Source: Euglena gracilis
Taxonomy: Eukaryota
Length of the DNA stretch: 64,000 bases
Assembly: GCA_039621445.1 (NCBI GenBank)
Contig: CP154954.1
Location: forward strand, 44,309,847-44,373,846
Direction: 5' to 3'
The first letter of the stretch is position 1, and each line of letters starts with the position of its first letter. The notes beneath the pieces were generated by a model that saw only the letters and a program-made list of their open reading frames with translations, was not told the origin of the DNA and ran no database searches. This document shows positions 4,901 to 7,900 of this stretch, piece by piece. A program made the position numbers and the translations under genes.

Positions 4901-7900
4901 CCGGTAACCTCTGTCCTCTGACCGGGGGGGGGGGTGGTTGTTGGACATAGGGTGGTGACCAAAAAGGTGTCCTCTGACCGGGGGGGTGGTCGTTGGACAT
5001 GGGGTCAAAAGAAAGTTGGTGGGTACCTGGGTCCCTACCCACCCAAAAATGCCCAAATTTTCCCTTCCGGCGCTTTGCGCCGAAAATTTTGGGCAATTTT
5101 GACAAATTTTTGTCCAAAAAGTTATATATAATATATATATATATTATAAAGATATATATATAGATATATACATAGATATAGAGATATATAGAGATATATA
5201 TATATATATATATATAGATATATATATATATTATATATAGATATATATATATATATATATATATCTATATATATATATCTATATATATATATATATATAT
5301 ATATATATAGTCCTGGAGATCCCCCAGTTCCTATTCACACCTGTATATGAAAATAAAAAACATACAGGAGGGGAAAAAACAACCTTTTGTCCTTGAATTT
5401 TTTTCTTGATTGCCCCTAAATGGGTTGCCAAAACCCTGTCAGCAGACCGATGTAGCGATTGACCCTTCCACATGCAGCCTGGGCAGGAAGGTGGAAGGTC
5501 ATAAAACCCAGACACCCTCAACTTGTGTGTATTTTTGGAGAACACCTCTGATGCTTTCGAGGTTTAATTTTGTGACTGGGAGACCAGAATGGAGGAAAAC
5601 GGCCACAAAATCATCTGTGATTGTCTGGGTGAGGTTTTGCTTCTTCACCGACTCCCAAAAATCTAACTGCTTCAGTGGGGTGTCCTGGCTAGGAAGAAAA
5701 ATTACAAAAAAAATGAATTGGACGACATTGTCTGTTTGGAAAGGCAGAGAATAAGCAAAGCATCCCATCAAAATGTGTCGGCGCAAACAAAACACATTCA
5801 AAAAAAAGACCAAATTTTTTTTCCGAACCCTCCTCCTCATCCGTGAATTTCCGTGAATTTCCGTGATTTCCGTGAAAGTGGCCTTCTGCCCATTTCCGTG
5901 ATCCTCCGTGAATTTCCGTGAATTTCCTTTTCAGGACGTGTGAGGATCCCTGCAATGCTGCCTGTGAAATGAAACAACACGGGGACACGGTCAATGTGGA
6001 AAGTGCGGTCAATGTAAAACGATTAGAAAGATATCAGGGGAAGGCGAGAAACTCACACAGTGGAAATCCAGGGGACAGAGAAGGGGGTGACAATGCTTGG
6101 CAACACATCTCCTGGGCCAGCAGGCTGGATTTAAAACACAGTCGCTGGCATCGGTAACAAAAATCAACAATTGCAGTGAGCCTGACCGCGTCGCATGGAA
6201 ATGTAACATGGGCTTCTGTGATGATTTTTCCGACTCTCATGCGTAATTGTGCGCGAGACAAGGATTGCTGGCATTTTGAAATTGGTGTTTCAAAATGAAG
6301 ATCGATTCCTTTCGGCGTCGGCATCTTCCCATTTCTTTCTAAGAAACCCTGCTGTGACGACCAGGAGGGTTCAGACGGTCCGGTGGGGGGAGGTCCCGCC
6401 GGCTGGCTAGGAAATGGATCTGGCTGGAAAGAAGGGGCTGGGTTGACCCCAGGGTTCGATATAAGGACAGGTGGGGGGGTGGTCCGGACCCCCCCTGCAG
6501 GCCAGGAGGGGGGGGGGGACACCCCCCCCCACCTAAACAGGTGCGCGGTCAGGGTGGCCGAAAATTTTTGACCCCCCAAAACGACCAAAAGTGCCATTTT
6601 GGGCACTTTTTGGGCAAAAATGTGCCAAAAATGCAAAAAATTTTCGGCGCGAAGCGCCGGAGGAAAAATTGACCCTTTTTGGGGGGGGGGTCCCGGGAAC
6701 CCCCCCGAGGGTCGGTCCGGACCCCCCTGGCAGGTGGGGGGGGTGGTCCGGACCCCCCCCGGCGGCCCGGGGGGGGGGGGGGGGGGGGGCCCCCCCCCCC
6801 CCCCCCTAAACCATGTACGCCCTCCTTATATCAAACCCTGGTTGACCCCCCCCCCCCCAAGGGAAGCCCAGGAGGGGGGTCCAGCCAGGTGCCAACCTGA
6901 ACCCAATACCAGCTTGGGGGACTGCGTCCAGTGGGCCAAGCAGGAATGTATCCGGCCAAACTGCCAATTTGCGATGACGTTTGTCAAAAAAAGGTTCTTT
7001 TTTTGGGTTTTGAGTTTTTACCTCAAGAAGCTGGTTGGACAAATGAAATAGAACCCAACCGGGCTTGGGTTATTTTTTGGCAGGGCTTGGGTGCCAGACC
7101 CTTGAGGAGGGGTCTCCAGCCCAGCTGGAAGCTGCAGCTGCTGTAGAAAAGGTGTTGGTTGGAAAAGACGTGCTAGCGCCCCCCCCCCCCCCCCCCGGGG
7201 TGGGACACCCTCTAACTTAGGAATCACCTGGTGATGACTCTCGAGACATGGCACAGTTCAGGACCCCTCACCACCTTGTGCCACTTCCCATTTCGCGATG
7301 TATGTGGAACGCCATTTCAAAAGAGAGTTGAGGCTGCCACCGATGTGGAACCCATTCGACATCGGGCCAGTGCTGGTCAGAGAGGCGGGCCAGGTCAGGA
7401 ATAGGAAGGGCGAGGGGGTTCGGTCACCACTGTCACGTCCCAAGCAGGCCTTTGCCTGAGACTCATTTAATGGAGATTAAATGATTGCGGCGAGGTTGAG
7501 TGTGTTTGTGGTCGTGTGCGTGTGCACGTGTTTATTTCCATGTGTGTGTGTGTGTGTGTGTGTGTTTGTGTGTGTATGCGTGTGTATGCACACGCGTGTC
7601 GAGGAGATTTTCGGCAACGGCGCGGGCAGCGGGCTTCTTCTTTTTCTTCTTGGACTTCACGACACCTTTGAGAGACGCGAGGTTGATGTCGTCCTCTGCG
7701 TTGCTGCGGCCAAACGTTGGGGACCCCTCGCCCCACCGCCCACGCCTATGGTCCGGAGCCAAATAACGTTTGTCTGTCTTTGTGACGAGTCTCAAAGGCC
7801 CTCAACGACAAACGACGCGGGCATCCAAACGACGTGGCCAAATTTGCACGTTGGCATGTTTGATGGTCTTGGCCCTTCGGAGAAACCTTCAGAATGTTCA

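Follow-up and report, generated by a model that had tools for sequence, protein, structure and literature searches.

Introduction

How the nonconventional introns of euglenids originated is an open question, and one locus of Euglena gracilis raises it in a concrete form: has a gene there just gained such an intron, or has a transposon landed in DNA that codes for nothing? The locus lies in a stretch of 64,000 nucleotides (assembly GCA_039621445.1, contig CP154954.1, positions 44,309,847 to 44,373,846 of the forward strand), which was analysed as a whole and is called the window below; all coordinates are those of the window, and those of the features are collected in Table 1. A first-pass annotation, made from the letters alone, described a short element with inverted-repeat ends, here called E1, as a miniature transposable element with inverted repeats (a MITE) resembling the hAT superfamily, and proposed that, on the minus strand, it splits a coding exon and leaves the transcript as a nonconventional intron. 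In the analysis reported here, the description of the element held, and the exon around it did not. E1 is probably a recently inserted hAT-type MITE that is nested in an older copy of its own family, here called E0, with no exon at stake. The fit of such elements to the nonconventional-intron code is a general one, and it is this coincidence that bears on the origin of the introns.

Structure of E1 and its family

The 391-bp element with its 18-bp terminal inverted repeats and perfect 8-bp target-site duplication is borne out by direct comparison and by chance controls. Both arms start with CAGGG and agree at 17 of 18 positions, and the duplication, GTTGACCC, is exact and lies within a larger direct repeat of 10 nt. 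Only two matches to the arm occur in the 64-kb window when up to three mismatches are allowed, where 0.06 would be expected, and two or more matches were reached in none of 100 shuffles. When the window was scanned for an exact 8-bp duplication together with CAG...CTG ends and arms agreeing at 11 or more of 14 positions, three elements passed (E1 and two others, E2 and E3), while 20 block shuffles yielded none. The palindromic motif GGTCCGGACC is common to E1 and both of the relatives described below; its 13 matches in the window compare with an expectation of 1.25, and none of 100 shuffles gave as many.

Ends of the form CAGGG, duplications of 8 bp and subterminal repeats are marks of the hAT superfamily, whose end consensus is YARNG, so that hAT-like MITE is a fair name for E1 and the annotation had chosen its label well. 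The 8-bp duplication and the short arms starting with CAGGG are shared with non-autonomous hAT elements, namely Ds-type elements and hAT MITEs, for which Hermes serves as the structural reference. Hermes produces 8-bp duplications at a preferred target nTnnnnAn and carries subterminal repeats that are bound by BED domains (PMC10368747), and E1 likewise has repeated subterminal motifs. E1 differs from the reference hAT elements in being unusually rich in G and C runs. The evidence from the sequence supports E1 as a young, hAT-like non-autonomous element, a newly found member of the familiar class of hAT-type MITEs. In a separate search, the arm was matched at 78 metagenome loci, each with one match only, and BLAST with E1 extended these by no more than 25 nt; the matches were attributed to chance and rejected as copies of the family.

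E1 is small, non-coding and multi-copy. The two relatives that had been placed at about 1170-1491 and 61610-61965 are real, full-length but degenerate copies whose left ends have decayed. A three-way alignment of E1 with both gives a mean column identity of 70%, and an nhmmer family profile built from these three sequences matches them at E-values of 6e-85 (1173-1491) and 8e-109 (61610-61965), values that are to be read with both sequences being seeds of the profile. Beyond the three seeds, the profile finds about nine more decayed loci in the window (E <= 1e-3), and the copies within the window have diverged to 53-76% identity. Decayed segments related to the family core, which is the stretch with AAAATGCCA and TTTCGGCGC, were seen at 58836-58956, 4916-5124, 61855-62098, 31690-31827, 8115-8269, 59502-59997 and 56696-56773 (profile E <= 1e-3), and old copies of it occur throughout the window.

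A probable older family copy around E1

The DNA on both sides of E1 probably represents a family member of greater age, now decayed, which the insertion interrupted, and this host copy, E0, is the strongest evidence against placing E1 in an exon. Read on the minus strand, E0 opens with CAG at 7230 and closes with CTG at 6362; each end resembles the family arm, and the length of 470 bp is family-like. Once E1 is removed, the profile aligns colinearly to 7023-6849 on the minus strand over profile positions 195-359 (E = 1.8e-4), and E0, matched by itself, attains a profile score of 15.5 bits, which none of 300 dinucleotide shuffles equals (maximum 10.7). Furthermore, the window has five copies of the 11-mer CTGGACCCCCC, where 0.20 would be expected. 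The two relatives, E2 and the profile-detected relative at 8115-8269 account for four of them, and the fifth lies at 6874-6884, within the upstream exon that had been proposed, where a run of 13 G follows it.

The local 1.2 kb contains 143 CAG...CTG pairs with the E1 site between them. Exactly one of these pairs, E0, has flanking 8-mers that agree at 7 or more of 8 positions; any pair flanked in this way arose in 15 of 500 shuffles. E0 is strongly decayed and the pairing of its arms is weak, so its boundaries are tentative. The two exons proposed on the minus strand, 6844-6896 and 6353-6444, both fall within E0, and the exon end at 6353 is the outer flank of E0. Nested insertion is usual for repeat-rich non-coding DNA, and a young MITE nested in an old one is the simplest reading of the locus.

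From this anatomy an insertion mechanism can be proposed. A hAT-type transposase encoded elsewhere would have cut GTTGACCC with an 8-bp stagger and joined E1 in, and the insertion would have left the perfect duplication and the nearly intact 18-bp arms. The target would have been the decayed E0, in repeat-rich and apparently non-coding DNA, and not a coding exon.

Fit to the nonconventional-intron code

The code against which E1 was compared was defined by knock-ins in a study of E. agilis and E. gracilis, with the signature 5'-N3CDG-/-CH'GN5-6|R (PMC12501133). In that study the donor-side spacer of 3 nt is obligatory, the acceptor-side spacer is 5 nt, with 6 nt working less well, a purine is preferred as the first exon base, and the bases after CAG must pair with the bases before CTG; synthetic 50-bp introns designed by these rules are spliced (PMC12501133). 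E1 satisfies every rule on the minus strand, which confirms what had been claimed for the excision unit from 6843 to 6445: its borders read C|AAC-CAG...CTG-GGGTC|A, and the unit is followed by A at 6444. The plus strand breaks the purine rule, since C comes next there. The unit lacks GT-AG borders, and its direct repeats make the borders slidable. Folding of the 399-nt minus-strand unit gave a 19-bp terminal stem in both the minimum-energy and the centroid structure (-261.6 kcal/mol, z = -8.3), and the one position at which the two arms differ pairs as G.U in RNA of the minus strand and is a C.A mismatch in RNA of the plus strand.

Scarless excision of E1 is thus predicted, provided that a transcript of the minus strand spans it. 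In such a transcript the arms would pair and bring the two copies of the duplication together, and the nonconventional machinery would be expected to cut 3 nt ahead of CAG and 5 nt beyond CTG, so that exactly the element and 8 nt would be gone.

Features in common with euglenid nonconventional introns are CAG at +4 to +6 and CTG at -8 to -6, with extended pairing after the former and before the latter, a minus-strand purine at the first exon position, slidable borders and the lack of GT-AG (PMC12501133). Unlike these introns, which are defined by their absence from mature RNA between exons, E1 is known from sequence, and its flanks resemble a decayed transposon. The resemblance also has a simple arithmetic ground. 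An element with CAG...CTG ends and an 8-bp duplication leaves 3 + 5 = 8 spare bases, so every such element carries the code signature, and the purine rule is satisfied in the orientation that has a purine at position 6 of the duplication, which for E1 is the minus strand. E2 and E3, from families unrelated to E1, likewise fit the code on the minus strand only. The match is therefore inherent to the type of element, and it is no evidence about the E1 locus. A scan for CAG...CTG stems that comply with the code, with the requirement for a duplication dropped, returned 267 and 283 candidates against 78-123 in shuffles and was too noisy for use.

Possible transcription of the locus

An explanation that also leaves no exon at stake is that the locus is transcribed and E1 is cargo of an intron or of an untranslated region. 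It may take two forms: E0 could be an old nonconventional intron of a plus-strand gene, or a minus-strand precursor could lose E1 as a nonconventional intron nested within it. Taken jointly, the two forms were judged unlikely. E0 does retain CAG...CTG ends and flanking 8-mers that agree at 7 of 8 positions, and it satisfies the purine rule on the plus strand, where G follows the 5-nt spacer, and fails it on the minus strand, where C follows; the density of nonconventional introns in E. agilis is a further point in favour. The weak pairing of the E0 arms argues in the other direction, as does the result that no plus-strand exon with a homologue or a domain was found beside E0, where the flanking frames are short and were not tested further.

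Coding potential of the flanks

That E1 instead interrupts a coding exon of a minus-strand gene, is removed as a nonconventional intron with the frame restored and represents a fresh intron gain is very improbable, even though the fit to the code on the minus strand, the 19-bp stem and the G.U pair at the one arm difference are what such an intron should have (PMC12501133). The code fit, being intrinsic to the type of element, is common to E2 and E3. The frame itself behaves as had been described, entering the duplication on the minus strand and, on read-through, stopping at a TAA in the arm (6828-6826), and it does continue across the emptied site as an open frame of 194 codons. Excision of the element with one duplication restores any frame by construction, however, so the scarless restoration that had been adduced for the intron is automatic. 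The length of the frame is ordinary as well: frames of 195 codons or more span 44% of 3000 random window positions, with a median of 177. The 194-codon frame was accordingly rejected as evidence for an exon because its length is ordinary for the window, and the divisibility of the unit (399 = 3 x 133) was rejected too.

The downstream part of the frame, 136 residues at 6037-6444 on the minus strand, has a flat GC content by codon position (0.544/0.529/0.485). It gave no Pfam match at E <= 0.1 and no relative among 34 word-sharing candidates, and its single match among 1.84 billion representatives proved in BLASTP to be a 20-residue repeat with E >= 1.2 and is spurious. Pfam searches with 20 open frames of the window returned only three sub-threshold matches, none of them to a transposase domain (AAA_16, E = 0.02; GATA, E = 0.076; AIMP2_LysRS_bd, E = 0.053), and Rfam at its gathering thresholds returned 0 matches in the window. 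With no homologue, domain or codon-position bias in these searches, and with both proposed exons inside E0, bearing E0 motifs and, in one case, the run of 13 G, the proposal that E1 splits a coding exon as an intron gain caught intact is not supported by the sequence.

Two known systems of intron gain can be set beside E1. Intron 4 of gapC in E. agilis ACOI 323 was recently gained and is flanked by eight-nucleotide direct repeats, which were ascribed to double-strand-break repair (PMC4770533, published in 2016), and it is a precedent for reading E1 as a young intron. Its gene is known and sister strains lack it, whereas for E1 the family is visible and the gene is not; its authors invoke break repair and no transposon family. 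Introners, known from Micromonas, Aureococcus and dinoflagellates, are DNA transposons that have inverted repeats and duplications and turn into introns when they insert (PMC11282704). They are removed by the spliceosome and exist in many near-identical genic copies, whereas the copies of the E1 family in the window are diverged and removal of E1 would use the nonconventional machinery.

Several observations weigh against the account of E1 as an insertion into a decayed E0 outside any exon. In global alignment E0 is only 53-55% identical to other members of the family, and past CAGG/CCTG its arms pair poorly. Euglenid genes include many orphan, low-complexity proteins. A second frame of the window (12080-12445, minus strand), chosen for its coding-like GC pattern, drew an equally empty protein search; the libraries seem to lack the host, so that the absence of homologues is weak evidence. 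CAG...CTG ends are found in three of the six elements with exact 8-bp duplications (E1-E3), and in all three the purine rule holds for the minus strand alone, a possible sign of selection in transcripts of that strand. Finally, nonconventional introns account for 71.8% of 649,158 introns in the 1.54-Gb assembly of E. agilis (PMC12501133), and at such an intron density it is not unlikely a priori that a CAG...CTG element is an intron.

Other transposon-like elements and duplication statistics

E1 is one of seven transposon-like elements of the window, labelled E1 to E7 in Table 1, of which the first six have exact 8-bp duplications and E7 has a 7-bp repeat. The duplication length is specific, with a peak at 8 bp across the elements of the window. 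Among 268 inverted-repeat pairs in the window, flanking direct repeats of 8 bp were found at four, one of them a microsatellite, and of 7 bp at one, while no 8-bp flanking repeat was found among 1819 pairs from 20 shuffles. Of the 12 diagnostic positions that the Hermes preference nTnnnnAn defines in the six exact duplications, 8 fit (binomial P = 0.0028); the duplication of E1 fits at one of its two, with T at position 2, and does not fit at position 7, where it has C. It is extremely improbable that E1 is no transposon and that its repeats stem from double-strand-break repair (proposed as the origin of the 8-nt repeats in PMC4770533), from chance in G/C-rich low-complexity DNA or from an assembly artefact. 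The window does contain 107 runs of at least 9 G or C, which inflate the number of weak inverted repeats (184 pairs within 700 bp). Against such an origin, E1 has arms of complex sequence that recur nowhere else in the window, its relatives elsewhere in the window have the same architecture, five other exact 8-bp elements and one 7-bp element were found with none in shuffles, and the duplications as a set lean towards the hAT target bias.

No long or transposase-sized open frame was found in E3. E4-E6 would miss the nonconventional-intron code in its exact form. Part of the interior of E6 is common to the E1 family (nhmmer matches at 36633-37248), and E4 holds a tandem array at 51392-51987 with nested periods of 10, 31 and 161 bp, made of TTTTGACCAC/TTTTGCC units. 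It was observed post hoc that the duplications of E1-E4 satisfy the purine rule on the minus strand only and are pyrimidine-rich on the plus strand; this strand bias could reflect chance, target bias or minus-strand transcription over a long stretch.

Table 1. Coordinates of E1, its family and the other elements and arrays of the window
Feature	Position	Strand	Description
E1, non-autonomous hAT-like element (MITE)	6450..6840	no strand	391 bp, GC 0.66, no room for a transposase
E1 left terminal inverted repeat	6450..6467	+	CAGGGTTCGATATAAGGA; 1 mismatch against the right arm
E1 right terminal inverted repeat	6823..6840	-	minus-strand CAGGGTTTGATATAAGGA; contains the frame-ending TAA
E1 target-site duplication, left copy	6442..6449	no strand	GTTGACCC
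E1 target-site duplication, right copy	6841..6848	no strand	GTTGACCC
Palindromic motif, subterminal and internal in E1	6481..6756		GGTCCGGACC(CC); exact on + at 6481, 6714 and 6745, plus reverse readings with 1 mismatch
Predicted 399-nt excision unit of nonconventional type	6445..6843	-	3 nt of duplication + E1 + 5 nt of duplication; predicted from sequence only
E0, probable older decayed family member interrupted by E1	6362..7230	-	470 bp after subtraction of E1 and one duplication; ends CAGGTGATTCC...GAACCCTCCTG
8-mer on the minus-strand 5' side of E0	7231..7238	-	GTCATCAC
8-mer on the minus-strand 3' side of E0	6354..6361	-	GTCGTCAC; 7/8 against the other copy
Degenerate E1 relative	1173..1491	+	right end ...TATCGAAACCTG retained; left CAG end gone; without duplication
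Degenerate E1 relative	61610..61965	+	right end ...TTGAACCCTG retained; left arm gone
E2, another family	39898..40318	no strand	421 bp; CAGGGAATT... arms 14/16; exact 8-bp duplication GCCTCCAT; code on minus only
E3	43644..45494	no strand	1851 bp, AT-rich, GC 0.29; CAGGCACCTATA arms 12/12; exact 8-bp duplication CTCATCAG; code on minus only
E4	51175-52630		1456 bp; CAA...TTG ends; exact 8-bp repeat CTCCCCAT
E5	23796-24077		CAT/CAG ends; exact 8-bp repeat GGTCCAAG
E6	36638-37287		CCAGGG arms 14/14; exact 8-bp repeat ATGCCCCC
E7	21290-21815		CAGGGGGG arms; 7-bp repeat CTGGATA
Microsatellite arrays	47776-49188; 53466-54268; 18634-18960; 42625-42915; 40600-40776; 5123-5309

Side features of the window

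The G or C runs of at least 9 nt amount to about one per 600 bp, the longest being 21 nt, and many of them lie in or beside MITE-like elements. The large microsatellites comprise a 1.4-kb (TAC)n array, a 0.8-kb (CA)n array, three more (CA)n arrays and one (TA)n array, and it is because of microsatellites that many of the long open frames of the window exist. The abundance of microsatellites and of CAG...CTG elements would suit a euglenid host. An open frame at 10287-10571 on the minus strand contains a Walker-A-like GDAGTGKT motif and is the source of the weak AAA_16 match, which is below the cut-off. The minus-strand frames at 10550-10819, 11687-11983 and 12080-12445 have a GC content that is high at the third and low at the second codon position. 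Pfam searches with the frames of 10287-12445 and the protein search with 12080-12445 found no domain or homologue; the minus-strand frames of this region may nevertheless belong to a real gene.

Implications for the origin of nonconventional introns

The proposal that the nonconventional introns derive from MITEs dates from 2013 (PMC3935182) and was taken up again in 2024 (PMC11282704) and 2025 (PMC12501133), in line with the remark in the first-pass annotation that the idea had been put forward before. Euglenid nonconventional introns have been drawn with arms, that is, inverted repeats, and with duplication-like repeats (PMC11282704). In the chromosome assembly of E. gracilis, DNA elements account for 4.60%, and a term search of the main text shows no mention of hAT elements or MITEs (PMC11252322). 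Literature searches outside supplementary material turned up no paper in which a euglenid transposon family, or the hAT superfamily, is named as the source of the introns.

E1 is not an intron demonstrably caught in the act of birth, and its worth lies in the general coincidence between the element and the code. It is conceivable, though on present evidence doubtful, that hAT-like families such as E1, E2 and E3 are the transposon source of the euglenid nonconventional introns, and that E1 itself is perhaps excised from minus-strand transcripts. If so, an exonic copy with a purine at position 6 of its duplication would be removed without a scar from day one, and nonconventional splicing would in effect reverse hAT integration at the level of RNA. 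Such an origin would also account for the introns being mostly slidable, for the common pyrimidine|purine preference at both junctions and for the 8-nt repeats of gapC. In conclusion, intact hAT-like families of the window coincide in form with the 3+5 code, and with several such families showing the exact 3+5=8 geometry, the MITE-origin hypothesis becomes directly testable.

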